NCBI GenBank assembly: GCA_045106175.1
Contig: JBGCEF010000033.1
Location: 5,319-69,318, forward strand
From: Bdellovibrionales bacterium
Lineage (GTDB): Bacteria; Pseudomonadota; Alphaproteobacteria; Micavibrionales; Micavibrionaceae
DNA length: 64,000 bases
Reading direction: 5' to 3'
The stretch's first letter is position 1. The number at the start of each line of letters is the position of its first letter. Under the pieces are notes generated by a model. It saw only the letters and a program-made list of their open reading frames with translations, was not told where the DNA came from and ran no database searches. Below are positions 5,946 through 51,670 of the stretch, in pieces. Both the position numbers and the translations under genes were made by a program.

Positions 5946-8648
5946 TTAACCGCCTGCGATTGCTTGGAGGTTACCTTGGGTTGCGCCTTGAACTTGGTTA
6001 GACACTAGCACACTTCCGCGATAGACATTATTGGTTAGCTGACCGGCTGGGTCGCCCGCGTTTTCTTGGAATGTTGCTGCATTAGAGCCCATCCAGCGCA
6101 GAATGTTGTTTGGTATGAGATCAATCAATTTAAAGCACGACATACCAACAAGATAGCAAATGATGGCGTACATTGCCGTGAAGAAGAATTGGTCTATTGG
6201 TCCCCTGTAATAAGCAATTTGTGTTGGTAATGCCTTAATTTCGCCTTCCACGCCAAAGCCTGCAGTGTTTGCAACGAGTAAGTCAAATATACTGTTCAAT
6301 ACGAACACCAGGGCGGAGAATATACTAATACTTGCGAGCAGTCCGAATAATATCAAAATCGGTCTTAAGAAAATCTCACAGAGTAAGAAATAACCATTTG
6401 CAGCGTCTTGTCCGGGAATTCCTTCGCCATCAATACGAATGTGTGCAAGTGCCCAAAGTGGCATTGCTACAATGGCTTCGAAAATACTTTTAACCCACCC
6501 ACTGACGGCGAATAAGAAGTAGATGAATGGCAGGAACGGTAAGACGTAGTATAAAATTACTGCGATACCGATTGATGAGATGATGACAGAGAACATGAAG
6601 CCGCTCAGCACTTTCGCAAGCTCTGCTGGAACGTCTCCGAGGATCGCTTCTAAACCGCCGCCAACATACCCTGCCGATGCGATGGCTGTGTTGCGAATGG
6701 TCGCTTCCATCATACCTTTTCCAATGGCTGTAAGTTGTGCGAGTGGGTTGATATCAACATTTTTGCGCATATCGAAAACGCCGCTTGTTCCAAGGATTAG
6801 ATTGATAACATCGAGGACTGCGTTGCCTGTGCTTTCGGTTTCTGCGGTGTCTGCTGCGTTGCGTTCTTGCCAGAAATTATGCGCGTAATAAATTGCATTG
6901 TAAGTTTCTTGTCGGTCTCCAGGAAGCTCCATAGCTGTCCCGTCCGCAAGAATTGGATTGTATTTGTTTTCGCCAGTAATGTTGAGATTTTCTTGGAGGC
7001 GTCTTTCATAGGTTAGCTCCATAGAATAGGGGTATAGTGTTGGTCGTGGGATATTGAGTGATGCGTCTATGACGGCGCCATTCATTTCAGCAATGCGGTT
7101 AAACCATATCGCTGCGCCGGCCCATCCTTTTTCAATGATTTCTGGAGGTACTAGAAAATTACCGGATGCTTGTTGTTGTGCGACACCGTTATCAATGGAA
7201 GCCTGTGCAAATGCATCGAAGATACTTTTCATCTCTTCAACATATTCATTGTTTGGTTCATATGTTACATCTGCGCATGTTGGATCTCTATCATAGTCGG
7301 ATATACGGCTTCTCGCTATGCATTGCGCGACTTCGTTTAGTGTTGTGTCGGTCCATAATCTATCGACAAGTTTGTAGTATTCTTCTGCGATGTAGAGAGA
7401 GCCTGGTTCAAAGTAATCAGTTGTTAGAACTGTGATATCGCCACAATGCGGGAAGACTTGCCCTGCGTAGCCCTCATATTCTGTTCCTGTTCCGACTGTT
7501 CCGAAGCGAATGTTAATATTACCGTTATAAGAGAAGCTAAGTGCTGTGCCGTATGGTGTGCCAATGTAATTATTTGCGTTTGGATTAACGCTTCCTGCGG
7601 GTGCGCCGGTTACGTAATCGGGTGGTGGCGGCCGTACGACGTATGCTTGGACGTCATTTCCGTGTTTGGTTCTCTCAACCATTGCGCAGACTTTTGCCGT
7701 TAATATGAATTGGTTTAAATTACCCATTTCTGGTCTGTTTGGAATGGCTACCAGGTTTGATTGATCACCTAAAAATGTTCCAGTTGATAATGTTGTATTG
7801 AAGTATGCCCAGCCATTTGATGCGAAATTAGAGCCATGTTTGGCGACCCAGAATGTTAGCATTTGCGCGCCGTTTAAGCCGTTATTATTATCACTTAGAT
7901 TGAGTGGGATGATCATTGCGAAGAACAACACAAAGCGTACGGGGGCCCATGCTCTGTTAAAGCGTTGCCCGAATGGTGTTCCTGTTGCTGCGGTTTCACC
8001 GACAACTGTAATTGTAAAATAGACAAAAAGCATTGCGGCCACGACGATGATGCCTAGTGAATAAAATCTGAGCATTGTATGTAAGGCGTCATGGAATGGA
8101 TATGGATATGCAGGGATGGCGGCAATGGATGGTACTCCGCTACTGCTTTCGCAAGCAACGAGCATTGAAACACAGGATTCGTAAATGCCAACCATTCCAA
8201 AGACGCGGTCTAGTATTATAAAGGCAAGATCTTGCTCTGGGCCTGCTGATCCTGTTGTTGCATTGGGGTTTAAAAATAAATCTTCGACAGGGAAGCCGAG
8301 CGCAAATGCAGAATGTGATGCAAAAAATGCAAGCCCCAGTAGTATAATTTGGATAATGATAATAGCTAAACCAGTCAGGATCGTGAAGAAAATGATGATT
8401 TGATCTGTGTTTTTTCGTTTAAAAACGAGGTTATCTGCGGCGGCCATAATAACATGCCGAATGCCGTATTTACCAATATTAGTACGATTGAGGTAAGGGT
8501 GACCATCAGGGATTAATTTTACAATGTTGTAAACAAGCGCAATGTAGAAAGCCAACGTTGAAAAACCGGATGTGGCAAGCGTCATGATTCTTGGAATAAA
8601 ACCAGGAAGCACGCTGTATTTGATTGCCTTTTTTGTGTTGGTTTTCAT
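5946..8648 (-). CDS. Large polytopic membrane protein, paralog 1 of 3; DotA/TraY-like (tentative)
   Basis: 900 aa. Shares these blocks with the two upstream ORFs: HPY..NIGKYGIRHVI, DLAFIILDRVFG, CX6C, ETAATGTPFGQRF..WAPVR, GWAGAAIWFNRIAEMNG, LPFLPFIYFLFAV..WVK.IFEA....PLWALAHIRIDGEG.PG, EIFLRPIL, FKLIDLIPNNILRWMG. The family assignment is from memory of Legionella DotA motifs and is not aligned. Confidence 0.55.
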   Translation of the reverse strand: MKTNTKKAIKYSVLPGFIPRIMTLATSGFSTLAFYIALVYNIVKLIPDGHPYLNRTNIGKYGIRHVIMAAADNLVFKRKNTDQIIIFFTILTGLAIIIIQIILLGLAFFASHSAFALGFPVEDLFLNPNATTGSAGPEQDLAFIILDRVFGMVGIYESCVSMLVACESSSGVPSIAAIPAYPYPFHDALHTMLRFYSLGIIVVAAMLFVYFTITVVGETAATGTPFGQRFNRAWAPVRFVLFFAMIIPLNLSDNNNGLNGAQMLTFWVAKHGSNFASNGWAYFNTTLSTGTFLGDQSNLVAIPNRPEMGNLNQFILTAKVCAMVERTKHGNDVQAYVVRPPPPDYVTGAPAGSVNPNANNYIGTPYGTALSFSYNGNINIRFGTVGTGTEYEGYAGQVFPHCGDITVLTTDYFEPGSLYIAEEYYKLVDRLWTDTTLNEVAQCIARSRISDYDRDPTCADVTYEPNNEYVEEMKSIFDAFAQASIDNGVAQQQASGNFLVPPEIIEKGWAGAAIWFNRIAEMNGAVIDASLNIPRPTLYPYSMELTYERRLQENLNITGENKYNPILADGTAMELPGDRQETYNAIYYAHNFWQERNAADTAETESTGNAVLDVINLILGTSGVFDMRKNVDINPLAQLTAIGKGMMEATIRNTAIASAGYVGGGLEAILGDVPAELAKVLSGFMFSVIISSIGIAVILYYVLPFLPFIYFLFAVSGWVKSIFEAIVAMPLWALAHIRIDGEGIPGQDAANGYFLLCEIFLRPILILFGLLASISIFSALVFVLNSIFDLLVANTAGFGVEGEIKALPTQIAYYRGPIDQFFFTAMYAIICYLVGMSCFKLIDLIPNNILRWMGSNAATFQENAGDPAGQLTNNVYRGSVLVSNQVQGATQGNLQAIAGG

Positions 8649-8669
8649 TGGCTGTTTTCACCCATTCCT

Positions 8670-11510
8670 TTATCCGACGAGCTTCTTCAACCCACTGCCC
8701 AAAGCTGATGATGTTTGTTGTGAACCAACAGTTGCTTTACCAACTAAGCCTTGTGCAGCGTCTTCACGTTGATCGTTAAATGTTGCCGTACTCTGACCCA
8801 TCCAGCGAAGGATGTTATTGGGAATAAGATCAATCAGTTTGAATGATGACATTGCCATCAGGTAGATCACGATTGTGTAGATAATTGTGAAGAAGAATTC
8901 GTCAATGGCTGAACGTGCGCTTTGAAGAACAGATGTGATTGTCTTAGGTCCGCGCGGTGTAACAACTTTTCCTCCGCCTTCTTCCGCTCTAAAATCGAAA
9001 CCGCCAACGTTAGATGTTACGAGATCAAAAACTTGATTGAGGACACTGACGAGTGCAGAGAAGATTGAGATACTTGCGAGCATTCCAAACAGCATCAAAA
9101 TTGGTCTTAAGAAGATTTCAAATATTAGGAAATATCCTGCTACGCCTGCTTGTCCTGGTAAGCCGTTTTGATCAATTCTAATATGGGCAAGTGCCCATAG
9201 AGGCGCGCCAACCATGGCTTCAAAAATACCTTTGACCCATCCGCCGACTGCGAAGAAGAAATAGATAAAGGGTAAAAACGGTACGATATAGAATAGGATA
9301 AATCCTGCAGTTAAGCTTACCATGGTTACAGTAATAAGGAATGTACTCATGATTTGTACCATGCCTGCCGGTACGTCCATGAATGATAGTAATTGTCCAC
9401 CAACACCGCCGACGACTGCAACGGTTAGGTTTCTGACGGCTGCTTCAACTAAGCCACGGCCAATTCCTACAATCTGTGCTAGTGGATGCGTATCTGGGTT
9501 ACGACGAATGTTATAAAGGCCTTCTGTTCCGAATAATGCATTAATAGAATCGATCATCGCATTGCCGGTTGGTGTGATATGTGATGATGATTCCACACCA
9601 TTGCCTTGCCATGATTTGAAGGCTTCCCAATGTGCATTGGCCATATCTGCTTCAACTGGACTTAGATTTATTGGGTCACCACTTATCACTTGCGGGTGGA
9701 ATCGCGTTTCAAACGGGACGTTATTGTTACGTCTTTTCTTCTCAGTCAAAATGTGTTCCATGAGGTCAGGATATAATGACGGATAGGGTATGTTTAAAAC
9801 TGAGCTTGTGACGGCACCGTTCATTTCTGCAATGCGGTTATACCAAATTGCGGCACCGGCCCAGCCTTTTTCAGTGACCATGTTATTCACATTGTAGCGG
9901 TCTGAATTTTGAAGGGCAGGGATTGCAGCTTCTGTGACGTTTAAGGTGCCACATACTGAGAATGGAACAGAGCAGTCGACCATGGCTGATTCCATATCTT
10001 CTCTGTAAAAATCTACTTGGTCAGCCTGAAAGTCACTTGGTGGTAGTTGCGCTAGTGTATCTCTTTCATATGGACCGTATTTTTGAGCGGTATTACGCGG
10101 GTAGTTTTGAGGCCCTGTTGTGAATGTTTCGAACCATAATTCCCTTAATACAAAGAAGTAGTAGTATTGCATAACCAGTGTACCAAGTTCTGGTCTTTCA
10201 CTTACGTCAGCCGCAGAAGGGTTTCTTGGATCTGAGAGTTTCATGGTTACGCGGCCACAATACGGGTATACGGAGCCTTCAAAGTTGCCGTAATCATCTT
10301 CAGATTCTACACCGAAAACAAATCTTACTGTCGCACTTTGATCTGTAAAATTATTCAATGATTGATAGGCAACATCATTTGCTGTTCCTATGTCTGGTAT
10401 TTCTAAGAAGTCTTGTCCTGTTGCAGTACTATTGCTTCCGCGAACGGCATACATTTTAATTTCTTTTCCACTAGCACCAGCGCCATATGCAAGATCGTAC
10501 ATTTCTGCACATGTTCGTGCGGTGTAGAAAAATTGTAATAGTGTCTTAATCTCTGGGATGTTGGGTGTGGAGACTAAATCTTTCATATCACCAAAATAGC
10601 CGCCTGCTATTGTTGTGTTAAAGTAATTCCAGCTATTTGTGGCAAAGCCGGAGCCGAATTGTGCAGCATAAAGAACAGTCCATTGAGAGCCGTTAAAACC
10701 AAGGCCGACGGGGACTAGCATTCCGATGGCAAATACAATGCGAAGTGGTGCCCATACTTTGTTAAAGCGCTTGCCAAATGGCGTGCCTGTTTGCGCTGTC
10801 TCAACAACGATTGTTACCATGAAATAGCTGGCGATGATGATCGCGACGACTAAAAGCCCGGTATTATAAAGTTGAAACATTTGATGCATTGCGGTGTGTA
10901 TCGGGAATGGGAATCCAAGCCCGTTATATATCGAAACATCAGTCACATCTGTCATGACATTTCTTGTCGCTGGTGTTGGGGGGCCATACCCTGTGTCAGG
11001 TAGGCTTTCCGTACATGTAATGCCTTGTGCTACGCATGAATTAAATAAATGATTTGTTCCGTCACTTACCCCGAAGACTAGATCCATCATAATGCCTGCA
11101 AGGTCGGTTGCTTCGCTTGCCGCTGGCGTTAAGAAGAATCCAGCAAAGTTAGTTGGCATTGCGAAGACGGGCTGCATGAAAATTGCAGCTCCTAGCATGC
11201 ATATTTGAATGAAAATTAAGACAAGGCCTATTAATAAGGCAACAAACAGAATGATTTGGTCGGCGTTTTCTTTTCTTAAAACCAGATTGTTTGCGGCTTC
11301 TGCGATGACATGTCTGATGCCAAATTTTCCAATATTTTGGCTTTGCGTATAGGGGTGGTGTGTAGGCAGCAAATTAACAGCGCTGTAAACCAATGCCATA
11401 AAGTAAGAAATATATTGAAAACCACCTGTAAATATTTCTTCAAGACGCACCTTAAAGCGAGGCAGTCCCATATATCCGATGATTTGTTTTCCTGTTAATA
11501 AACCGATCAT
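8670..11510 (-). CDS. Large polytopic membrane protein, paralog 2 of 3; DotA/TraY-like (tentative)
   Basis: 946 aa with the same conserved blocks as paralogs 1 and 3. Its start ATG overlaps the stop of paralog 3 (ATGA). Its stop lies 21 nt upstream of the paralog 1 start. Confidence 0.55.
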   Translation of the reverse strand: MIGLLTGKQIIGYMGLPRFKVRLEEIFTGGFQYISYFMALVYSAVNLLPTHHPYTQSQNIGKFGIRHVIAEAANNLVLRKENADQIILFVALLIGLVLIFIQICMLGAAIFMQPVFAMPTNFAGFFLTPAASEATDLAGIMMDLVFGVSDGTNHLFNSCVAQGITCTESLPDTGYGPPTPATRNVMTDVTDVSIYNGLGFPFPIHTAMHQMFQLYNTGLLVVAIIIASYFMVTIVVETAQTGTPFGKRFNKVWAPLRIVFAIGMLVPVGLGFNGSQWTVLYAAQFGSGFATNSWNYFNTTIAGGYFGDMKDLVSTPNIPEIKTLLQFFYTARTCAEMYDLAYGAGASGKEIKMYAVRGSNSTATGQDFLEIPDIGTANDVAYQSLNNFTDQSATVRFVFGVESEDDYGNFEGSVYPYCGRVTMKLSDPRNPSAADVSERPELGTLVMQYYYFFVLRELWFETFTTGPQNYPRNTAQKYGPYERDTLAQLPPSDFQADQVDFYREDMESAMVDCSVPFSVCGTLNVTEAAIPALQNSDRYNVNNMVTEKGWAGAAIWYNRIAEMNGAVTSSVLNIPYPSLYPDLMEHILTEKKRRNNNVPFETRFHPQVISGDPINLSPVEADMANAHWEAFKSWQGNGVESSSHITPTGNAMIDSINALFGTEGLYNIRRNPDTHPLAQIVGIGRGLVEAAVRNLTVAVVGGVGGQLLSFMDVPAGMVQIMSTFLITVTMVSLTAGFILFYIVPFLPFIYFFFAVGGWVKGIFEAMVGAPLWALAHIRIDQNGLPGQAGVAGYFLIFEIFLRPILMLFGMLASISIFSALVSVLNQVFDLVTSNVGGFDFRAEEGGGKVVTPRGPKTITSVLQSARSAIDEFFFTIIYTIVIYLMAMSSFKLIDLIPNNILRWMGQSTATFNDQREDAAQGLVGKATVGSQQTSSALGSGLKKLVG

Positions 11511-14416
11511 CTACCTGCCCCCGTTGCTCGTGCTAGTAAATTACCAAAGCTTCCGCCTGCGCCAGACGCTGCTTGTTGAACACCTTCTGATAATTGACGT
11601 CCGGCTGTTGCTCCACCAAGAGCCGCATAGCGCGTTAGGCCATCAACAGAATCCTGGTTAATGTCACCAAATGAGGACACTTGGTTACCCATCCAACGCA
11701 GAAGGTTATCGGGAATTTTATCAATGAGTTTGAAAGCTGCGATTGCCATCATGTAAACGATAATCGCATAAATCACACTGAAGAAGAATTGGTCAACAAT
11801 ACTGCGTTTAAATGAGATGCGCGCATTACCAGCCTGTACAAGATCAATCGTTGTATCATTATCGAAGCCAGCAAGGTTTTCTGTGACTATGCTCCATAAG
11901 AAGTGTAATACGCGGACTTGTGCTGTAAATATAAGTGTTGCTGCAACTAGTCCGAAGATTGTTAAAACGGGTCTTAAGAAAATTTCAAAAATCAGGAAAT
12001 AGCCATTGAGCGCAGATGTGCCAGGAAGCCCATCACCATCAATGCGTAAGTGTGCTAAGGCCCATAGAGGCGCGCCAACCATTGCTTCAAAAATTGTTTT
12101 GATCCATGAGGCGACTGCAAAGAAGAAATAGATAAACGGTAAAAACGGTACAATGTAGTACAGAACGAGACCGGCTGTAAGGCCTACAAAAGCAGTTGAA
12201 AGAATGAAATCAGCCGCAGGTGTGATCAGGCCAGGTATGACGCGATCAATGATAACTCCTAAGCCGCCGATTGCGGATCCTGCGGATGCTGTTGCGATGT
12301 TGCGGATTGAGGCATCAACAAGGCCTTTTCCGAGAAGGGTTAGCTGCGTGAGTGGGTGCGTAGAAACATTTGTATCTGTCATTGCAGAAAGGGGTTGTGT
12401 TCCGAAAATAAGGTTGATTGTGTCTTCGAATACGCTTCCTGAAATTTCTACTTCATCTGATAGGATGCTTCTGCCGTTGTCATTCCAATATTTCATGACT
12501 TTACACAGCACTTCACCAACACTTCTCATGTCTGATGTAATTTCACCTGTGTTTTTCACACTTTCTAGACAAAAACGGTTGCTCTGAGTGATGAGTACGT
12601 TTTCTCTTCTTTCTATTTCTTGGATGTTACGCATTACAATCGGATATTTACTTAAAACAGGGACATCACGGACGGCAGACATGTAATTTCCGTTAATACG
12701 CGCTATTGTGTTGTACCATATTCCAGCACCTGCCCAGCCTCGACTCAGGATGTCACTGTTCATTTCATAAAGGTTGGTTGCGTTTGTGTAGTCTGTCCAG
12801 ATTGTTCCTAGTCTTGCTTGTAAATTTGTTTGCATTTGCGCGACATATGTTGTTTGCCATCTTGTTCGCGGTGCAAGATTACATAGGGGTACAGGAGGTG
12901 TGCTAAGAGCGCCCAAAACACCACCTGCAACATCTGTAGCAGTAACACCTGACGGTGGGTTACAGACATGAATAAGTGCTGGGTCATTTGTTGCACCTTG
13001 CAGCTGCAAGGATGCGAATCTAAATGCAAACGCTTCTAATCCGAAGCTGTTAGCATCAAACCAAGCATCTCTGATTAAAGTATAGTAATATTCTTGAACT
13101 GCTTCTGGGCCTAAGCCTGTTCCACTTGCGCTGTGGATTGAAATTCTTATCTCTCCGCAGTGGTCTAGTTCTGTTTCTCCTGCGTCAACTTCGCCATCAC
13201 CATCATTGTCAAAATGTTCACCAAAACGAATAGTAATGTCGCTATTGTTGAAAAAGCTTAAGGCATCAGCGTATGTTGTCCCGGAATTTATTTCCATGAC
13301 CGAGTCTGTATTTGGCATCCAGTTTGGGGCGGTTTTGAAGAAGTAAGCTTTTACGAGGTCATTGTCTGGTGTGTATTGTTTGGTGCCTGCATCATCAGTG
13401 TCGATGTAATAAAAACCAGCTGCACATGAATGAACAACAGACATTGCCGTAAGGATGGGGGTTACATCAGGTGCTTCGGGATTTCCGATTAAGCTTGTTC
13501 GCTCACCTGTTGGGTTGGCACCTTTACCGCCAGCAAAAGGCGCGCCGAGGCGAATTTGGTTATTATAAGTTACCCATGTATTTGTTGCGAAACCTGATCC
13601 TATTTTTGCAGCAAATAGGGTTATGAATTGCCCGCTGTTTAATCCGTAATTGATTGGAACTAAAAGTCCAAGCGCTACGACTAGTCGGATTGGAACCCAT
13701 ACATTTTGGAAACGCTGGCCGAAAGGTGTTCCTGTGACGGCTGTTTCTCCAATTACTATTAGGATGAAATACAAGAAAATAAGCGCACCGATCAGAAGAA
13801 TTCCTGTGTTATAAAAGCGGAATAATTCATGTAATGCTTGGTGAAATGGCCATCTTGTCCCTGGTGTAATTGCCGGTAATGGCGTGGGTGCGATTGTTGT
13901 TGTTCCTGTTTGACATGATACGCCCTGCTCGATACATGATCCAAACATGTCAGGAATACCAAAAACCTGATCCAAAAGCATGAATGCGATATCAAATGTT
14001 GGATCAACTGTTAAAAAGATAGATTTACCTGCGACTGTCCCGGATGGATGAGGCGCAGAGGGGTATGATGCGAGAGCAGGTTCAAAAATCAGTGCGAATA
14101 TAATCATCGCGATTTGAATGATTATTAGTACTAATCCCGTTAGAATTACTCCGAAAATCAAGATTTGGTCAATATTTTCTTTTTTAAGAACAATATGATT
14201 AGCGGCTTCAGCTATGACTTGTCTGACGTTGAATTTTCCGATGTTTTCAGGATTTAAATAAGGATGATTGCTTGGTAAAAGCCTTACCATTGCGTAGATT
14301 TGTGCGATTAAGAAGGCAATATACCCAAAGCCAGACGTAAACAGATTTCCTACCCGCGGCATGATGCCGGGTAAAATTACATATCCTGCTACTTTTTTTG
14401 CTTGTATACCGCTCAC
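11507..14416 (-). CDS. Large polytopic membrane protein, paralog 3 of 3 (first gene of the operon); DotA/TraY-like (tentative)
   Basis: 969 aa with a GTG start preceded by GGTGAG. Same conserved blocks (ETAVTGTPFGQRF, GWAGAGIWYNTIARINGN, PFLPFIYFFFAV, PLWALAHLRIDGDGLPG, FKLIDKIPDNLLRWMG). Confidence 0.55.
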   Translation of the reverse strand: MSGIQAKKVAGYVILPGIMPRVGNLFTSGFGYIAFLIAQIYAMVRLLPSNHPYLNPENIGKFNVRQVIAEAANHIVLKKENIDQILIFGVILTGLVLIIIQIAMIIFALIFEPALASYPSAPHPSGTVAGKSIFLTVDPTFDIAFMLLDQVFGIPDMFGSCIEQGVSCQTGTTTIAPTPLPAITPGTRWPFHQALHELFRFYNTGILLIGALIFLYFILIVIGETAVTGTPFGQRFQNVWVPIRLVVALGLLVPINYGLNSGQFITLFAAKIGSGFATNTWVTYNNQIRLGAPFAGGKGANPTGERTSLIGNPEAPDVTPILTAMSVVHSCAAGFYYIDTDDAGTKQYTPDNDLVKAYFFKTAPNWMPNTDSVMEINSGTTYADALSFFNNSDITIRFGEHFDNDGDGEVDAGETELDHCGEIRISIHSASGTGLGPEAVQEYYYTLIRDAWFDANSFGLEAFAFRFASLQLQGATNDPALIHVCNPPSGVTATDVAGGVLGALSTPPVPLCNLAPRTRWQTTYVAQMQTNLQARLGTIWTDYTNATNLYEMNSDILSRGWAGAGIWYNTIARINGNYMSAVRDVPVLSKYPIVMRNIQEIERRENVLITQSNRFCLESVKNTGEITSDMRSVGEVLCKVMKYWNDNGRSILSDEVEISGSVFEDTINLIFGTQPLSAMTDTNVSTHPLTQLTLLGKGLVDASIRNIATASAGSAIGGLGVIIDRVIPGLITPAADFILSTAFVGLTAGLVLYYIVPFLPFIYFFFAVASWIKTIFEAMVGAPLWALAHLRIDGDGLPGTSALNGYFLIFEIFLRPVLTIFGLVAATLIFTAQVRVLHFLWSIVTENLAGFDNDTTIDLVQAGNARISFKRSIVDQFFFSVIYAIIVYMMAIAAFKLIDKIPDNLLRWMGNQVSSFGDINQDSVDGLTRYAALGGATAGRQLSEGVQQAASGAGGSFGNLLARATGAGR

Positions 14417-14550
14417 GATAAATTACTCACCACTATCAATATTCTAGTGTAACGCGAAAATAGTTAAAATTTTAGTTAATTTTTATAATTTTCGCCTTAT
14501 TTTCACCACTTTTTGTCTTTTTCAGTGATTAAAGTATAGGCGTAAGAGCT
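14417..14550 (-). promoter_or_regulatory. AT-rich upstream region presumed to hold the promoter of the three-paralog operon
   Basis: This is the only non-coding space between the ettA terminator hairpin and the first paralog. On the minus strand a possible TAGAAT -10 box follows TTAACT/TTTTAA. The spacing is not ideal, so the exact promoter is not resolved. Confidence 0.3.
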
Positions 14551-14577
14551 TAAAAAACCCTGAATATTCAGGGTTTA
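14551..14577 (-). terminator. Rho-independent terminator downstream of ettA
   Basis: Perfect palindrome AAACCCTGAATATTCAGGGTTT followed, on the minus strand, by a T-run. It lies about 20 nt after the ettA stop. Confidence 0.75.
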
Positions 14578-14597: not shown

Positions 14598-16280
14598 TTA
14601 GCCCGCTTTGCGTAGGGGTTTATATTTTATGCGGCTAGGGGATTCACCTTCGGCTAAGCCCATGCGGCGGCGATAATCTTCTTCATAGTCTTGATAGTTG
14701 CCTTCAAACCATGTGACTTGGGAATTTCCTTCGAACGCTAGAATATGCGTACACAAGCGGTCTAAGAACCAACGATCGTGGGAAATGATGACCGCGCAGC
14801 CAGGGAATTTTTCAATGGCCTCTTCAAGAGCGGCGAGTGTTTCTGTGTCTAAATCGTTAGTTGGTTCATCGAGGAGAATAACATTTGCCTCTTTTTTCAA
14901 CATCTTAGCGATGTGTACGCGGTTTCTTTGTCCGCCTGATAGATCTTTAACAAGCTTTTGTTGGTCGCCTTTTCTGAAATTAAATGCGGATACGTACGCC
15001 CTCGATTGCATTTCTACTTTGCCGAGTTTGATGATGTCTGTACCGCCGCTGATTTCTTCCCAGACATTGTTATCACCTGTTAGCGTATCGCGGGATTGGT
15101 CGACATAGCCTAGTTGGACGGTATCACCGACGTGGAAGTCGCCTTCATCGGGTATTTCATGGCCTGTAATCATCTTGAATAATGTTGATTTACCTGCGCC
15201 GTTTGCGCCGATAACTCCAACAATTCCACCAGGTGGGAGTTTGAAAGATAGATCTTCAATAAGGAGTTTGTCGCCAAAGCCTTTTTTGATGTTTTTGGCT
15301 TCGATGACCAAATCGCCGAGGCGCGGTGGTGCGGGAATGACGATCTGTGTGGCGCGTGAATCGATACCTTGTGATTCTTCGATGAGATCATTATAGGCGC
15401 TGATACGGGCTTTTGATTTGGCACGACGGGCGGATGGTGATTTACCCATCCATTCACGTTCGCGTTTGAGGGCTTTTTGGCGTGCATCTTCTTCGCGACC
15501 CTCTTGTTCCATACGTTTGGCTTTTTTCTCAAGGTAGGCTGTATAGTTACCTTGGTAAGGGATGCCTTGTCCGCGATCAATTTCCAAGATCCAGCCTGTT
15601 ACATTGTCGAGGAAGTAGCGATCATGCGTGATCATTACAACTGTTCCGGTGTAATCGCTTAGGAAGCGTTGTAGCCATGCGACGCTCTCTGCATCTAAGT
15701 GGTTTGTTGGTTCGTCGAGTAAGAGTAGGTCTGGTTTTTCAAGGAGTAATCGACATAGAGCAACGCGGCGTTTCTCGCCACCGGAGAGATTTTCCACGCC
15801 CGAATCGGCCGGTGGGCAGCGCAGTGCGTCCATTGCAATTTGGGCTGTACGTTCGACTTCCCAGCCTTCGTTATTATCAAGCCATTCTTGTAATTCGCCC
15901 ATTTCAGTTGTGAGAGCATCGAAATCTGCGTCGGGGTCAGCCATTTCTGCGGCTACCTCATTGTAACGACCCAACTTTTCAAGTGCTTCGCCTAGTCCGT
16001 CCATTACATTTTCAAGAACAGTTTTGCTGTTATCGAGTTGTGGTTCTTGTTCCAAGTAGCCTACACGCGTACCTTTAGCGGACCATGCCTCGCCGCTGAA
16101 TTCTTTATCAATGCCACCCATGATTTTAAGAAGGGTTGATTTACCAGCGCCATTTGGCCCCAAAACACCGATTTTAGCGCCTGGATAGAAGCTTAGCGTG
16201 ATGTTTTCGAGGATTTTATTACTTCCATAGGCCTTGCTTAGGCCATTCATCACGTAAATATAGCTGCCTTCTTTTGACAT
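14598..16280 (-). CDS. ettA: Energy-dependent translational throttle ABC-F ATPase EttA
   Basis: 560 aa with two ABC cassettes. Long colinear matches to E. coli EttA as I recall it: ISLSFxPGAKIGVLGxNGAGKSTLL, LSGGExRRVALCRLLLEKPDxLLLDEPTNHLDAESVAWL, ITHDRYFLDNV.GWILE.DRG.GIP. Confidence 0.95.
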   Translation of the reverse strand: MSKEGSYIYVMNGLSKAYGSNKILENITLSFYPGAKIGVLGPNGAGKSTLLKIMGGIDKEFSGEAWSAKGTRVGYLEQEPQLDNSKTVLENVMDGLGEALEKLGRYNEVAAEMADPDADFDALTTEMGELQEWLDNNEGWEVERTAQIAMDALRCPPADSGVENLSGGEKRRVALCRLLLEKPDLLLLDEPTNHLDAESVAWLQRFLSDYTGTVVMITHDRYFLDNVTGWILEIDRGQGIPYQGNYTAYLEKKAKRMEQEGREEDARQKALKREREWMGKSPSARRAKSKARISAYNDLIEESQGIDSRATQIVIPAPPRLGDLVIEAKNIKKGFGDKLLIEDLSFKLPPGGIVGVIGANGAGKSTLFKMITGHEIPDEGDFHVGDTVQLGYVDQSRDTLTGDNNVWEEISGGTDIIKLGKVEMQSRAYVSAFNFRKGDQQKLVKDLSGGQRNRVHIAKMLKKEANVILLDEPTNDLDTETLAALEEAIEKFPGCAVIISHDRWFLDRLCTHILAFEGNSQVTWFEGNYQDYEEDYRRRMGLAEGESPSRIKYKPLRKAG

Positions 16281-19898: not shown

Positions 19899-20657
19899 AT
19901 GAATAAAAAAGCACAGTCAGAAGGCGGGAATGCCTCAAATAACTCATTAATTAATGCGACGAAAAGTCGTGCAAATTTCTCTGGTCATGGAGGCTCTCTG
20001 GGAGCTTCTGGTTATCGTGTTGCAGCGAATAATCCGGATAATTGTGAATTTTTGAATGAGCCTGGTCAGAATATTGCCATCAACTGTGGTGACAATGGTT
20101 TCGAGGATATTTTGATAGGTGTGGAGTGGGATAACACGCATGTTCAAGATGTTGGTTTTTTCCAGAAACTTTTAAAACGTGTTCAAAAAGAAGGTGTTGA
20201 TTTGGATATTGGCTGTCTTTACGAGATGGCGGATGGAACACGTGGAGCTATTCAAGCTTTTGGTGAAAAATTTGGCTCGTTTGACGCGCCGCCTTACATT
20301 TCCTTGTCAGGAGATGAGCGTACAGGTGATGCGGAAGGGCATGATGAGTTTTTGCTGGTTAATGGTCAGCATTGGAATGATATTAAGCGGCTTTTGGTTT
20401 ATATCTACATTTATGAAGGTGCGCCGAGCTGGAGCGAGATTAATCCGCAGATTATTTTGGATGTGCCGGGTGAAAATGATTTGGTTGTTACACTAGGGGC
20501 GCATAATGATCATCTTTGTTTATGTGCGGTTGGTGGTATAGAGAATATCCGCGGCGGTATTAAATTGACTAATTACACTGAATATTTCCCCGGGCATGCG
20601 GAAATGGACCGTGCGTTTGGCTTTGGGCTTGATTGGGCTGATGGGACAAAAGATTAA
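19899..20657 (+). CDS. TerD-domain protein (tellurium-resistance/Ca-binding fold), with N-terminal extension
   Basis: VDLDIGCLYE, SGDERTGDAEGHDEFLLVN and IKRLLVYIYIYEG match the TerD-domain pattern (DLD...GDxxTGxGxGDDE...IxxIxxxxxIY). Confidence 0.75.
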   Translation: MNKKAQSEGGNASNNSLINATKSRANFSGHGGSLGASGYRVAANNPDNCEFLNEPGQNIAINCGDNGFEDILIGVEWDNTHVQDVGFFQKLLKRVQKEGVDLDIGCLYEMADGTRGAIQAFGEKFGSFDAPPYISLSGDERTGDAEGHDEFLLVNGQHWNDIKRLLVYIYIYEGAPSWSEINPQIILDVPGENDLVVTLGAHNDHLCLCAVGGIENIRGGIKLTNYTEYFPGHAEMDRAFGFGLDWADGTKD

Positions 20658-20746
20658 AACTCTGCCTTTGTTTAGCTCTTTTGTTTATGCATGATACCAG
20701 TTACAGTAATTTTTACTGATTAATTCTTTTCAATCTCAGGTCTTTC

Positions 20747-21727
20747 ATGGATTTTTCTTTGTTTTCACAACTTTTAGTGCCGCTGGCGATGATGCTGGCT
20801 GGAATTGCGTTGTTGGTTCAGGGCGGTAATTGGACTGTTGATGGGGCGGTTTATGTTGCGCATAAATTTGGTATTTCTCCCCTGGTTGTAGGTTTTACGA
20901 TTATTGCGTTTGGAACGTCTTTACCTGAATTGCTGATTTCTGTATTTGCAAATCTACGTGGATCGGGCGGTATTGCTTTGGGTAATGTTTTGGGGTCCAA
21001 CATTGCTAATATTCTCCTTGTGATTGGTGTGAGCGCTGTGATGGCGCCATTGATTGGCAAATCTCAAGCCGTTTTGCGTGATTTATTTATGATGATTTTA
21101 ATGACCGGTTTGCTGGCCTTTTTAATGCAATATGGTGTGATTGACCGGGTTGCAGGGTTTGGGATGATTGCCATTTTGTTTGGGTATGTGTTTTTTCAAT
21201 ATAAATCAGCAAAAGCAGATAATGAAATTCCACAAGAAGCGGAAGATGTTCCCGATTATTCAAAGCCGATTTTTGCGTATGCATTTTTGTTGATTGGAAT
21301 GATTGCGATTGCTGGGGGTGCAGAGTTTTTAGTGCGGGGGGCAAGTGCGAGCGCAAATATTATTGGTGTGCCTGAAGCCGTAATCGCGTTGAGCATTATT
21401 GCGTTAGGCACTTCCCTGCCTGAGCTTTCTACGTGTGTCATTGCAGTGCGTAAAGGCCATAGCGATATTGTTTTGGGAAATATTATTGGATCGAATGTAT
21501 TTAATATTTTGATGATTCTTGGGTTTACAGCATTGGTAAAGCCGATTGCACAGGGATCATTTGCGCCACAATTAGTTAATTTTGATATTTGGATTACTGT
21601 TTTGGTAAGCGTTATTTTTGCTCTATTGCTTGTTTTTACTGGTAAAATTGGTCGTGTTACAGGTTTTGTTTTCTGCGCGGCCTATATTGTTTATAATATT
21701 TATATATATGCCCTTTATATTGGTTAG
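20747..21727 (+). CDS. Ca2+/Na+ antiporter (CaCA family, YrbG-like)
   Basis: 326-aa polytopic protein with the duplicated alpha-repeat signature GTSLPEL (twice) and GNVLGSNIANILL / GNIIGSNVFNILM. Confidence 0.9.
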   Translation: MDFSLFSQLLVPLAMMLAGIALLVQGGNWTVDGAVYVAHKFGISPLVVGFTIIAFGTSLPELLISVFANLRGSGGIALGNVLGSNIANILLVIGVSAVMAPLIGKSQAVLRDLFMMILMTGLLAFLMQYGVIDRVAGFGMIAILFGYVFFQYKSAKADNEIPQEAEDVPDYSKPIFAYAFLLIGMIAIAGGAEFLVRGASASANIIGVPEAVIALSIIALGTSLPELSTCVIAVRKGHSDIVLGNIIGSNVFNILMILGFTALVKPIAQGSFAPQLVNFDIWITVLVSVIFALLLVFTGKIGRVTGFVFCAAYIVYNIYIYALYIG

Positions 21728-21738
21728 ACATTTTATTT

Positions 21739-22386
21739 TTGAGGATTGCCGTGGTTGATATTTTTGATACACGATTTGAAGATCAGGACGTTGATGTAGA
21801 CAATTTTGTCGCGCTTGGTGACGAAGTGAACATTAATGAGAAAGACCCGACCTTAAAGCGTATTTTGATTGGTTCAGGTTGGGATACGAATGCGTTTAAT
21901 GCTGATGTTGTCGATGCAGATATCAGTTTGTTTTTATTAAATAATGATGAGATGACGCGCATTGATGAGGATTTTGTCTTTTATAATCAAAAAGAGGCTA
22001 ATAACGGTGCTATCCGTCATCATGGTGATAGCCGAACAGGTGCAGGTGACGGTGATGATGAAACGATTTCCGTTTTTCTTGAAGGTGTCCCGTTTGATGT
22101 TATGCAGATTATGATTGTTCTAACGATCTATCGTGGTTTCGAAAAAGAACAGAATGTTAGTATGATTCGTAATGCGTATATTCGTATTGTGAATGAAGAG
22201 AACAATTATGAGATTGTTCGCTATAAATTGGATCCCGATATTAAAGACCGAACGGAGACGGGCGTTCTTGCCGCGACGCTTAATCGTGAAGGACCAAAAT
22301 GGCACTTTAAACCTTTGGCAGAATTTTATCCGAATGGATTGCCTGAAATTGCCTCGAAATACGGTATTATTGTGAAAGAGCAATAG
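21739..22386 (+). CDS. TerD family protein
   Basis: ILIGSGWD, DADISLFLL, DFVFYNQ and HHGDSRTGAGDGDDETISVFL (the canonical TerD Ca-binding motif), then MQIMIVLTIY. The start codon is uncertain (TTG 21739 or GTG 21751). Confidence 0.85.
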   Translation: MRIAVVDIFDTRFEDQDVDVDNFVALGDEVNINEKDPTLKRILIGSGWDTNAFNADVVDADISLFLLNNDEMTRIDEDFVFYNQKEANNGAIRHHGDSRTGAGDGDDETISVFLEGVPFDVMQIMIVLTIYRGFEKEQNVSMIRNAYIRIVNEENNYEIVRYKLDPDIKDRTETGVLAATLNREGPKWHFKPLAEFYPNGLPEIASKYGIIVKEQ

Positions 22387-22392
22387 GTACGA

Positions 22393-22977
22393 TTATTTTT
22401 TCATACCCAGTAGTTGGCCCGGTTTGATATTAGGTGATTTACGTCCTATGCGGCCGCGTTTCCCCCCGCCATAAAAGCTGTCATCCTTCATGTTTTCATC
22501 AATAAGATCATCAAAATCGGGGATTTCACCCATTTGAAGAGATTCTATAGTCGCGCGGAAGAGGTCACATCCTTTGCCTTCCCAATCATGGAATTCGTTG
22601 ACGTAGCTTTTGTCATTTACGCGGAGTTGCTTTGGCCCCCATTGATTTTGTACAGCTGAGTCGGCACGCATCCACAAGACTTGTTTGCGCCCGCCCGGAG
22701 GTACTTTATTCGCACCCTCACTTTTATTTTCATTAGGGTCTGGGATTTCCATGCTTCCCGCGCCGCCGCCTTCGTCTTCGTCTTCTTCTTCGGCGTCGTC
22801 ATCGCGTAATAGCTGGATTTCGGCTTCTAAATCTTCTCCTGCTGTTCCCATACGTACCTCTGCACTGCAGGTGATGCCCTTTGATTCATCATAATGAACC
22901 CATGGCATCGTCTCGTATGGAGACATAACGTAGTTTACGCCCAACTTTTCTAATAATTCTTCAAGCTCAACACGCAT
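22393..22977 (-). CDS. Hypothetical protein with central poly-acidic tract
   Basis: 194-aa ORF with good coding appearance. It contains a DDDAEEEDEDEGGG tract and a basic C-terminus (GGGKRGRIGRKSPNIKPG). I recognise no family. Confidence 0.6.
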   Translation of the reverse strand: MRVELEELLEKLGVNYVMSPYETMPWVHYDESKGITCSAEVRMGTAGEDLEAEIQLLRDDDAEEEDEDEGGGAGSMEIPDPNENKSEGANKVPPGGRKQVLWMRADSAVQNQWGPKQLRVNDKSYVNEFHDWEGKGCDLFRATIESLQMGEIPDFDDLIDENMKDDSFYGGGKRGRIGRKSPNIKPGQLLGMKK

Positions 22978-23135
22978 GAAAGAAAGCTATCCTTTTCTTA
23001 CTAGGCCGCGATATTACTTAAGTTTAGCACTATTGTCAGCCAAAAGGTTAGAATTGATTGAAAAACATGATTGTTTAAAGTCATTGTGCAATAGAGTATA
23101 ATAAATAATCAAAACAATCTTTGGCTTTAATTCAC

Positions 23136-24218
23136 ATGATCAGACTTTTTATTTTTAGCGCGTTGCTTTTATCGACAGGGTTTTTAAGTTCGCCTGTTAT
23201 TGCACAAGATTCCCCGACTGCTGCGGCGCAAGCACGCGTTTTTAAAAGCAAGATGTTTGCTGTTAATGCAGGTCAGCTTAAGGCGGGTAACTTGGATGTT
23301 TTGATTTGGGGCGTTAGACAACCGGATAATCTGTCTGGTGAGATTTCAGAAAAAGGTCGTATTTTTCTTGATGATATTATCAATAACCAAAATGTTGAAT
23401 GCCAGTTAAAAGAAAAAGACGGTATGCGTGTAACAGCGCAGTGTTCGAATTTTGAAGGACAAGATATTGGTCTTTCGATGCTGCGTTCTGGGTATGTAAG
23501 CGCGGAGCGTTCGGCGGTGAGTGATAGTGTTTTTGAGCAGCCTTATTTGCAGGCCGAGAAAGAAGCTCTTAAAAAAGCCATTGGATTATGGGGTAATGAT
23601 CAATCGTCGTCTGATATTGGGCAGTTCTCAATGAATGTCATTGTGATCACTATTATTGTTTTGGTTTTGATACTTAGTGTTTTTGGGTTGCTTGTGTTCA
23701 TTATTATGCGTGGATTTAGAACTGTTATTGCGTCACAGGAAAAGAGCCAGGACATTTTGGAACGCGAGCGCAAAATTCGTGATAAAGAGCGTTCAGTTGT
23801 TGCGAGCATGTTGGATGCAGAGATTAAAGCCAACAAATCCAAAATTGATGCTTATATTGCTGTTTATGAAGAAATGATGAGCGATCTTACCAATCCTCAG
23901 AGACAGCCAAAATATAAGAAGGTTGGTGATATTGTACAAAGTCAGCCATCACTGGAGCGCGCTGTTTTTGATCGTAATACAGATAAAATGGATATTTTAG
24001 ATAAAGAGCTTTCTGCAAAAGTGATTCATTTTTATGCGCAGATTAATGCAAAGCCTAACTATGTTAATTTAGAGCCAGATACCCCGATAGAAGAGGCGAA
24101 GACACTTGTTCAAGGTGGAATTGAAACAGCGCGACTGCTTAATAAATATGCGGATCAGTTGCTTGATGGTTTTCAACGTGCGGGGTTATCTGTTGATTTA
24201 ATGGGTTCGGATGAATAA
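23136..24218 (+). CDS. Membrane-anchored protein with N-terminal SNase-like (thermonuclease-fold) domain and C-terminal helical domain (tentative)
   Basis: Signal peptide, then VLIWGVRQPDN...GRIFLDDII...VECQ...GQDIGLSMLRSGYV, which resembles the SNc pattern VRL.GID.PE...G..A...L...G.D....ML..G.A. A TM helix follows (VIVITIIVLVLILSVFGLLVFII), then a charged helical tail. Catalytic residues are not clearly conserved. Confidence 0.4.
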   Translation: MIRLFIFSALLLSTGFLSSPVIAQDSPTAAAQARVFKSKMFAVNAGQLKAGNLDVLIWGVRQPDNLSGEISEKGRIFLDDIINNQNVECQLKEKDGMRVTAQCSNFEGQDIGLSMLRSGYVSAERSAVSDSVFEQPYLQAEKEALKKAIGLWGNDQSSSDIGQFSMNVIVITIIVLVLILSVFGLLVFIIMRGFRTVIASQEKSQDILERERKIRDKERSVVASMLDAEIKANKSKIDAYIAVYEEMMSDLTNPQRQPKYKKVGDIVQSQPSLERAVFDRNTDKMDILDKELSAKVIHFYAQINAKPNYVNLEPDTPIEEAKTLVQGGIETARLLNKYADQLLDGFQRAGLSVDLMGSDE

Positions 24219-51094: not shown

Positions 51095-51670
51095 TTAGCC
51101 GTATGATGCGCCTAAAAATGGTTTCACGTCAGCTTTTGGTTTATAACGTTCGTCATCAAAATGTGCTTCAATGGCATAGCGAAGACGGCCGACTTCGCCT
51201 GCGTTTTCGACTGATCCTGTTGAATTTGGTCCGGTGTTAAAGAAATCAACGCCCATTCCTAAATCTGAGTAGCTTAGAATTGGTAGAGCGGCGATGACGT
51301 GTTGAAGTTCGCGTGCCATATCGTTGAGGCCCATGTCGCTGAATTCTTGTGCGAATTCAGATAGTGTGCGTTCGATGATAGCTGTGCTCTCACCATCTAG
51401 ATGATCATATATATAATCTAAGACTTGGCCATGGGGTGTTCCGTTGAGGATGAGTGAGAAGACTTGTTGTTTGAGGCTTTGCGCATATGGGTTGAGGACT
51501 AATTCTTCAACGCCTGCCGTTGTCTCTGCGTTTTCTGCAATGTCTTTTATAGTTTCGAATGTTGTTTTTCTTGTGCCCGTGAGTGCGCCAGCCTGTTCAA
51601 AATTATTGGACAGGGTGATTGTTCCAAAGTTACTTGGTTCATAGTCAGTGTGCGCGTAACTATTTAACAT
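51095..51670 (-). CDS. Hypothetical soluble protein inserted between ctaD and ctaB
   Basis: 191-aa ORF with no TM helix or signal peptide. It is preceded upstream by the ctaD terminator hairpin. No family recognised. Confidence 0.55.
   Translation of the reverse strand: MLNSYAHTDYEPSNFGTITLSNNFEQAGALTGTRKTTFETIKDIAENAETTAGVEELVLNPYAQSLKQQVFSLILNGTPHGQVLDYIYDHLDGESTAIIERTLSEFAQEFSDMGLNDMARELQHVIAALPILSYSDLGMGVDFFNTGPNSTGSVENAGEVGRLRYAIEAHFDDERYKPKADVKPFLGASYG

Follow-up and report, generated by a model that had tools for sequence, protein, structure and literature searches.

A 64,000-nucleotide stretch of DNA (hereafter the window), from a metagenome-assembled genome (MAG) labelled 'Bdellovibrionales bacterium', carries three tandem paralogous genes, here called A, B and C, which almost certainly form a conserved, stand-alone operon of DotA-family membrane proteins. 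A sequence-only reading of the window had placed these proteins in the DotA/TraY family, and this assignment was upheld by a family profile, by a sequence match to a solved structure and, for A and B, by a match between structures. All three proteins passed the NCBIfam profile TIGR04346 (DotA_TraY), scoring 249.1, 267 and 249 bits for A, B and C, respectively, against a cutoff of 100; the gene C protein aligned in one stretch, residues 187-854 on profile positions 24-656 of 656. The equivalog profile NF033886, which describes DotA proper, failed for each (172.1, 181 and 161.9 bits against a cutoff of 500), with only the C-terminal third aligned. The only significant match among PDB sequences was Legionella DotA (9ngy and 9nh0; E = 6.8e-21), and it fell on the hairpin of transmembrane (TM) helices 1 and 2 with their intervening loop and on the C-terminal helices. 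The N-terminal DotA blocks cited in the earlier reading also proved correct: the DotA sequences DLSVVFLGNLFGV and NTAHEGQMLGQKWSSIWIPLR have DLAGIMMDLVFGV and ETAQTGTPFGKRFNKVWAPLR as their aligned counterparts in the triplet proteins.

AlphaFold2 monomer models were built for A and B only, from an alignment of 64 sequences, and were of usable quality (predicted local distance difference test 78.9 and predicted template modelling score 0.72 for B; 75.2 and 0.70 for A). A Foldseek search of both models against 350,542 PDB chains returned, for A and B alike, a single significant match, namely DotA of 9ngy from the in-situ DotA-IcmX protochannel. Model B matched chain 9ngy_FP1 with an E value of 1.4e-11, a Foldseek probability of 1.00, 993 aligned columns and a template modelling (TM) score of 0.41-0.45, the next match having an E value of 0.46; the corresponding values for model A were 1.1e-12, 1.00, 957 columns and 0.40-0.44, with the next match at 1.5. 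VirB6/TrwI chains (7o3v_G, 8rtd_L and 8rt9_F) matched the two models only at E values of 2-10. No Pfam family, TrbL/VirB6 included, rose above its cutoff for A, B or C (a chance match to KRE1 had an E value of 0.047), and the PADLOC anti-phage defence models gave no family for any of the three. The profile and structure comparisons that the sequence-only reading had proposed as checks therefore agree on DotA and, within Pfam, give no match to TrbL/VirB6.

Legionella DotA consists of a signal peptide, TM1 and TM2, an extended domain with five disulfides and helices HH1-HH5, and forms a pentameric chamber of the inner membrane and periplasm whose narrow hydrophobic neck opens into a trans-envelope conduit; DotA and VirB6 are considered structural analogues (10.1101/2025.06.23.660953). 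The helix order of the triplet proteins is consistent with this published layout. They open with a conserved segment of ~85 residues (…LPxxHPYxxxxNIGKFGIRHVIAEAANNL…), predicted to be cytoplasmic, which is followed at ~86-108 by an extra strong TM helix (TM0) identified from hydropathy and the AlphaFold2 models. The next ~90 residues bear the D.A..LD.VFG block and, just upstream of TM1, a CX6C motif; the D.S..FL...FG-type block DLAGIMMDLVFGV occupies residues 136-148 of B. TM1 (~205-236) and TM2 (~239-270), placed by hydropathy and AlphaFold2 secondary structure, flank an ETAxTGTPFG loop and lead into a periplasmic domain of ~430 residues, after which come very long hydrophobic helices at 715-775, 787-835 and 861-903. 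This C-terminal bundle holds the most conserved block of all, PFLPFIYFxFAVxxWxKxIFEAxVxxPLWALAHxRID. Across 177 proteins, conservation peaked in the TM1-loop-TM2 region and the C-terminal helices and was lowest in the periplasmic domain, where nevertheless the cysteines equivalent to C334 and C418 of B were 100% conserved; the CX6C cysteines were retained in 69-88%.

In addition to membership of the TIGR04346 subfamily and the sole significant structural match (A and B), the triplet proteins share with Legionella DotA the TM1-loop-TM2 hairpin with its (E/N)TAxxG...G.(K/R)(W/F)...W.P.R motif, a large cysteine-bearing periplasmic domain and long hydrophobic C-terminal helices. They differ from it in several respects. 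Identity in the structural alignment is only 14-15%, and the profile scores lie far under the equivalog cutoff. Three paralogues stand where Legionella has one gene; they are chromosomal, are set in housekeeping synteny and have no IcmX, DotG, DotO, DotB or DotL nearby. The triplet has one invariant and one mostly conserved cysteine pair, compared with the five disulfides of DotA. Finally, the D.S..FL...FG block is not directly preceded by a cleavable signal peptide in the triplet but by the ~85-residue predicted cytoplasmic segment and the extra TM helix, which to judge from the alignments are specific to this clade and take the place of the DotA signal peptide. Used as a query, the N-terminal 200 residues recovered only six short proteins, probably fragments from the same clade, and gave no functional lead.

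The list of open reading frames (ORFs) agreed with the sequence-only reading on the three minus-strand ORFs and on both the overlap and the short gap that separate them (Table 1). Gene C is convergent with mlaC across a 28-nt gap. Upstream of gene A, the ettA stop codon lies at 14598-14600 and is followed by a hairpin that is the boundary of the unit and lies outside the DotA-like module itself; the AT-rich spacer between this hairpin and the gene A GTG, given earlier as about 130 nt, measured ~135 nt. The 4-nt overlap, the 21-nt gap and a conserved upstream element, together with gaps between paralogues of mostly -4 to 60 nt in other genomes, make up an operon-like layout, and we conclude from this spacing and from its own upstream element that the triplet is a self-contained chromosomal operon.

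Table 1. Features of the triplet locus, with positions numbered from the first letter of the window.
Feature	Position	Strand	Description
Gene A	11507-14416	-	969 aa; GTG start; first in operon; DotA/TraY-family polytopic membrane protein
Gene B	8670-11510	-	946 aa; ATG start, overlapping the gene A stop by 4 nt (ATGA)
Gene C	5946-8648	-	900 aa; ATG start; 21 nt after gene B
Shine-Dalgarno-like sequence AGTGGTGAG	14426-14434	-	9 nt before the gene A GTG
TACACT hexamer	14446-14451	-	putative; TAnAnT form resembling a -10 box, after a conserved GCG(G/T) that follows the palindrome
Conserved element AATTAACTAAAATTTTAAC	14463-14481	-	palindromic core TAAAATTTTA at 14465-14474; ~58 nt before the gene A start
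ettA terminator-like hairpin with T-run AAACCCTGAATATTCAGGGTTTTTT	~14552-14576	-	read from the sequence; separates ettA from the triplet upstream region

A scan of one genome per GTDB species yielded 226 matching stretches, from which 79 loci were kept. All 79 belonged to the Micavibrio lineage and included the complete chromosome of the cultured Micavibrio aeruginosavorus HCB189. The array lies between ettA and mlaC-mlaA-lptGF in at least 79 species genomes, and in nearly all loci with enough contig the order was ettA, three DotA-like ORFs, mlaC, mlaA and lptG, with all three ORFs intact and ~900-1000 aa long in nearly every such genome. The survey of related genomes suggested by the sequence-only reading thus found the triplet conserved as a set, between the same flanks. 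Eight genomes carried four tandem DotA-like genes (loci L042, L052, L059, L063, L070, L074, L080 and L081), and a small deep-branching group, with L070, L080 and L081 among its members, formed separate clades in a neighbour-joining (NJ) tree. Some position-1 orthologues were longer, such as that at 6850-10008 of L004 (1052 aa) and protein P0037 (1037 aa), and gave a weak match to Pfam PF13884 (Peptidase_S74), the intramolecular chaperone domain known from the tail-spike and fibre proteins of phages; this is a hint that part of the lineage has an extra module at the C terminus.

Hundreds of full-length relatives of gene B were found in MAGs labelled Alphaproteobacteria, Micavibrio, Rhodospirillales or Pseudobdellovibrionaceae. 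Micavibrio is an alphaproteobacterium (PMC3189940); NCBI taxonomy files it under Bdellovibrionales/Pseudobdellovibrionaceae, which accounts for the label of the source. Many MAG labels in this lineage are accordingly misleading, and both the relatives and the gene content of the window are those of the Micavibrio lineage. NCBI has an entry with 100% identity to the gene B protein, 'MAG: DotA/TraY family protein [Bdellovibrionales bacterium]'; the proteins already bear this label in databases, and their membership in a known family is not new. What is undescribed in searchable papers is the stand-alone context, the triplication into fixed orthogroups, the clade-specific N-terminus and the conservation throughout a lineage reported to lack a type IV secretion system. 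We found no paper in the searchable literature that links Micavibrio to DotA or describes the module, which fits the earlier statement that no described module of this kind was known, apart from the automatic annotation 'DotA/TraY family protein'.

The duplication that gave rise to the triplet is old. In a three-way alignment the proteins were 37-39% identical to the gene A protein over their full length, while nucleotide identity between paralogues was 0.49-0.53, the best DNA repeat blocks between copies were 61-73% identical and identical residues were encoded by the same codon in 43-50% of cases; synonymous sites are saturated while the protein blocks persist. All of the shared blocks listed in the sequence-only reading were seen in this alignment, with one correction: the gene A motif reads NIGKFNVRQVI, with N where G had been given. 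A UPGMA (unweighted pair group method with arithmetic mean) k-cluster cut of 235 homologues was dominated by outliers and uninformative, and was replaced by nearest-neighbour and NJ analysis. Among the proteins of three-copy loci, the nearest cross-genome relative occupied the same array position in 176 of 177 cases, and only 1 of the 177 was closer to a paralogue in its own genome; gene A fell in the position-1 and gene C in the position-3 orthogroup. This positional matching indicates that the triplication predates the radiation of the sampled lineage and that gene order has been fixed since. The three positional orthogroups, present in at least 59 three-copy genomes, and the codon divergence both corroborate the earlier view of an old and maintained duplication. 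Distances between positions (1.05-1.15) were barely above those within positions (0.88-0.99), and despite the clean positional orthology an alignment of the three-copy loci contained only 1, 0 and 0 orthogroup-diagnostic columns for A, B and C, respectively.

These data also dispose of the idea that the triplet is a decaying relic of an ancestral, integrated type IVB secretion system (T4BSS) element with no current function. Isolation from all known partner genes is what such a relic would display. Nevertheless, the ORFs are intact in nearly every genome, 78 alignment columns show conservation of 95% or more in each of the three groups together, protein blocks were kept while synonymous sites became saturated, and the M. 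aeruginosavorus orthologues are transcribed; we regard the relic reading, to which we give next to no probability, as already effectively refuted by conservation.

We likewise asked how far the stand-alone character of the operon extends. Every family match among the 40 larger flanking ORFs of the window was to a housekeeping gene (pepA, lptF/G, mlaA/C, ettA, tag, xseA, putA, purD, the cox operon, GDH and others), and a few ORFs had no match; no type IV secretion system (T4SS) family appeared among these 40, about a dozen smaller ORFs lying outside the scan. No tRNA or Rfam match was found in the window, no IcmX-like gene was seen in it (no IcmX profile was run genome-wide), and the Pfam-annotated flanks of four related loci were housekeeping, with no secretion genes. 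All ORFs of two T4BSS regions, from Methylorubrum and IncI1, then served as BLASTP queries against 1.72 Mb of Micavibrio-lineage DNA from 84 loci including the window (64 kb of the source genome, +/-10 kb of the others); the query set was incomplete, as the IncI1 region is broken by insertion sequence (IS) elements and has no annotated traJ, traU or traO. Nothing but the DotA/TraY ORFs and their antisense shadow ORFs gave any match in this DNA. Such shadow ORFs also lie opposite the Methylorubrum DotA gene, giving rise to spurious BLASTP cross-matches, and the long antisense ORFs at 6580-6888(+) in gene C and 12204-12587(+) in gene A are most likely non-coding shadows of codon bias. The earlier observations that mlaC and ettA flank the triplet and that no other secretion genes lie nearby therefore held for the window ORFs, the four annotated flanks and the 1.72 Mb alike.

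Known relatives of the triplet occur in quite different surroundings. By tblastn, TraY/DotA homologues were present in 3839 plasmid records, 3230 of them typed as conjugative, mainly through the C-terminal helical block; all matches were below 60% identity and none covered at least 80% of the query. The best lay on an MPF_I-typed megaplasmid of Methylorubrum extorquens, adjoining a DotM/IcmP-like gene, and aligned with residues 203-940 of the gene B protein (E = 2e-32), leaving the N-terminal 200 residues unaligned. The IncI1 copy sits between traX and excA, near trbA-C and nikAB. The IncI1 TraY/MPF_I plasmid proteins thus belong to the same DotA/TraY family but, unlike the triplet, are single genes amid tra/trb or Dot/Icm genes and do not have the N-terminal 200 residues in common with it. 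A parallel for the multiplication itself is rvhB6a-e of Rickettsiales, in which a polytopic inner-membrane T4SS channel subunit is likewise multiplied in tandem; in contrast to the triplet, these genes belong to the VirB6/TrbL family and lie alongside a full rvh T4SS gene set.

The stand-alone reading has to be weighed against a more conventional explanation, namely that the three genes encode routine subunits, although multiplied, of a type IVB secretion or conjugation system that is complete, its remaining components being encoded elsewhere in the chromosome or too diverged to be recognised. Rickettsiales, which scatter their rvh genes as well as multiply VirB6, offer a parallel. All characterised family members act inside a T4BSS, the company of a DotM/IcmP-like gene on the MPF_I-typed Methylorubrum replicon is in line with this, and the portion of each genome inspected was limited to the lengths given above. 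Furthermore, in Legionella the DotA-IcmX protochannel fails to form if DotG or IcmX is missing (10.1101/2025.06.23.660953). Against these points, the complete M. aeruginosavorus genome was reported in 2011 to be without any T4SS (PMC3189940), and the query ORFs of the two T4BSS regions found no homologue apart from DotA/TraY in the 1.72 Mb around the arrays. In addition, at least 79 species keep the locus within the same housekeeping synteny, in contrast to mobile T4BSS clusters, and the proteins score far under the DotA equivalog cutoff and possess a clade-specific N-terminus. On this evidence we consider routine T4BSS membership improbable, and we believe it fairly likely that the triplet works independently of any T4BSS.

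Expression of the orthologues was taken from an RNA-seq table for M. aeruginosavorus ARL-13, which reports a gene expression index (GEI) for attack and attachment phase. The orthologues GMV_196, GMV_197 and GMV_198 (2694, 2763 and 2742 nt), located in the interval from the Ttg2/MlaC gene to ettA, had attack/attachment values of 11.9/3.9, 4.8/1.7 and 3.6/2.8, respectively. The flanking housekeeping genes were near 0 in attack phase (ettA, GMV_200, 0.5/4.7; vacJ/mlaA, GMV_194, 0.7/12.2; efp, GMV_188, 0/27.8). Only a third of M. aeruginosavorus genes are transcribed at all in attack phase (PMC3189940), and the GEI values accordingly place GMV_196-198 within an attack-biased minority. That the orthologues are transcribed also removes, as far as the orthologues go, the concern raised in the sequence-only reading that the ORFs might not be expressed. 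In M. aeruginosavorus, an M50 (site-2 protease family) peptidase gene, GMV_199, lies together with a 710-aa opposite-strand ORF between ettA and the triplet (6243-9764 of locus L056, from HCB189) and displays an attack-phase bias like that of the triplet (3.2/0.7). We considered this peptidase as a processing partner for the extra TM helix and rejected it, as it is in no other locus; the 710-aa ORF is likewise in no other locus and lies outside the module.

The expression data bear in turn on whether the triplet, instead of being a secretion conduit, could serve envelope maintenance or lipid handling as a complex acting with its Mla and Lpt neighbours, the hydrophobic DotA-type chamber accommodating lipids. 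The adjacency to mlaC-mlaA-lptG-lptF is nearly invariant in the lineage; on the other hand, pepA-lptF-lptG is in itself a housekeeping arrangement that is common, and the Mla and Lpt genes run convergently to the triplet, on the opposite strand, and so are not co-transcribed with it. The DotA-IcmX lumen is described as hydrophobic (10.1101/2025.06.23.660953) and T4SSs are reported to drive lipid mixing, an activity that was however assigned to DotG and was independent of DotA (10.64898/2026.01.14.699567). Moreover, the expression bias of vacJ/mlaA in M. aeruginosavorus is opposite to that of GMV_196 (0.7/12.2 vs 11.9/3.9). Because of the convergent neighbours, the opposite expression bias and the DotA-independence of lipid mixing, we rank an envelope-lipid role lower and judge it quite unlikely.

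The triplet also appears to possess regulatory DNA of its own. On the minus strand, the element AATTAACTAAAATTTTAAC is followed downstream by TATTTTCGCGT and then by TACACT, and sequences much like this (pattern AAATT[AT]A[CA]TAAAATTTTA..TAT.T..GCGGTA.A.T) precede gene A by a comparable distance in ~40 of 60 Micavibrio-lineage loci. This AT-rich palindromic element is separated from the first DotA-like gene by ~40-70 nt, both in the window and in distant genomes and M. aeruginosavorus (L056); L004, L013, L048 and L072 are further examples. At the position of the hexamer, the aligned upstream regions read TACACT, TAGACT, TATGAT, TAAAAT or TATTAT, and the k-mers AGTGGTG and TGGTGAG recurred in 16-17 of the 60. 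Within the window the TAAAATTTTA element is single copy, and since this count is not significant alone (1 match vs 0.5-0.8 expected by chance), the case for the element rests on its conservation across genomes. Proteins of genomes that share it are only 40-50% identical, a distance over which neutral intergenic DNA should not persist, which argues for a dedicated promoter or operator. A generic promoter and terminator scan of the window called fewer sites than in shuffled controls and called neither the upstream element nor TACACT (sigma-70). As the TAAAATTTTA element is unlike a sigma-70 -35 box, AATTAACTAAAATTTTAAC is most likely, on sequence grounds, a triplet-specific promoter or operator, and is a candidate operator or unusual -35 region.

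The reading that we favour, and hold to be probable on balance, is that the triplet encodes a DotA-derived membrane complex that works without a T4BSS in an alphaproteobacterium of the Micavibrio lineage. The three proteins would be co-made from one promoter and would build, within the inner membrane, an oligomeric chamber like that of DotA, projecting into the periplasm. DotA proper forms a homopentameric chamber capped by an IcmX pentamer; the chamber proposed here would probably be a mixed assembly of the three paralogues, as suggested by their tight coupling and universal co-retention. The complex might then act as a gated envelope conduit or scaffold in the absence of a Dot/Icm machine. 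Given that no DotO, DotB or DotL lies nearby, energy and substrates would have to be fed in from elsewhere, and the conserved, predicted cytoplasmic N-terminal segment would be an obvious docking site. By analogy with DotA, formation of an oligomeric channel is plausible, if a little short of probable, and the composition of a hetero-oligomer from all three paralogues is more tentative.

As to what such a complex might do, a role at the predator-prey interface is our leading guess, based on the attack-phase bias of the M. aeruginosavorus orthologues and on the epibiotic lifestyle. How epibiotic predators breach prey and extract nutrients has been stated explicitly to be unresolved (PMC3189940). 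We nonetheless regard a predation-related role as doubtful at present, and as slightly more doubtful the specific proposal that the co-assembled, T4SS-free channel is the conduit, or part of the conduit, through which an epibiotic Micavibrio injects factors into prey or draws nutrients from it.

Several observations weigh against the proposed complex or its suggested role. Counterparts of DotG and IcmX and an energising ATPase were not seen here, though the Legionella protochannel requires the first two. The AlphaFold2 models are monomers, and TM-scores of 0.40-0.45 reflect just global fit. The near-zero number of diagnostic residues means that there is no visible signature of distinct roles for the three copies. 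The absence of a T4SS rests on the 2011 annotation of a relative and not on the source MAG, and a single study, on a set of distant orthologues, is the source of the expression data. Lastly, the lineage may not be uniformly predatory, a photoheterotrophic lifestyle having been proposed for at least one Micavibrionales MAG (PMC9933672).

The prevailing view of DotA is of a core component dedicated to type IVB secretion machines. The triplet, an intact triplicated DotA module with expressed orthologues, is a fixed part of the core chromosome in a lineage for which the reference genome is reportedly without a T4SS. This suggests that the fold of the DotA chamber is capable of an independent function, and makes the triplet a natural minimal system in which to study it. 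If the proposed predation conduit were real, the DotA/VirB6 channel fold would work autonomously, having passed by co-option from a conjugation-type machine to a predation organelle. The triplet is among few conserved, attack-phase-expressed and envelope-spanning candidates in a lineage with obligate epibiotic predators. So far it has been passed over without comment, under the automatic label 'DotA/TraY family protein' or simply as 'putative membrane protein', the only name given to it in the 2011 M. aeruginosavorus annotation (PMC3189940).

Elsewhere in the window, a few kb from the triplet, 19899-22386 contains a weak TerD-like ORF, a Na/Ca exchanger and a TerD-domain protein. Three further ORFs of 191-365 aa, at 22393-22977(-), 23121-24218(+) and 51095-51670(-), had no Pfam match, the last of them lying within the cytochrome oxidase cluster. 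Of the TerD-like group, the TerD and exchanger genes at least are again close to the triplet in a related locus (L001, 1946-4427), with no evident link to it.

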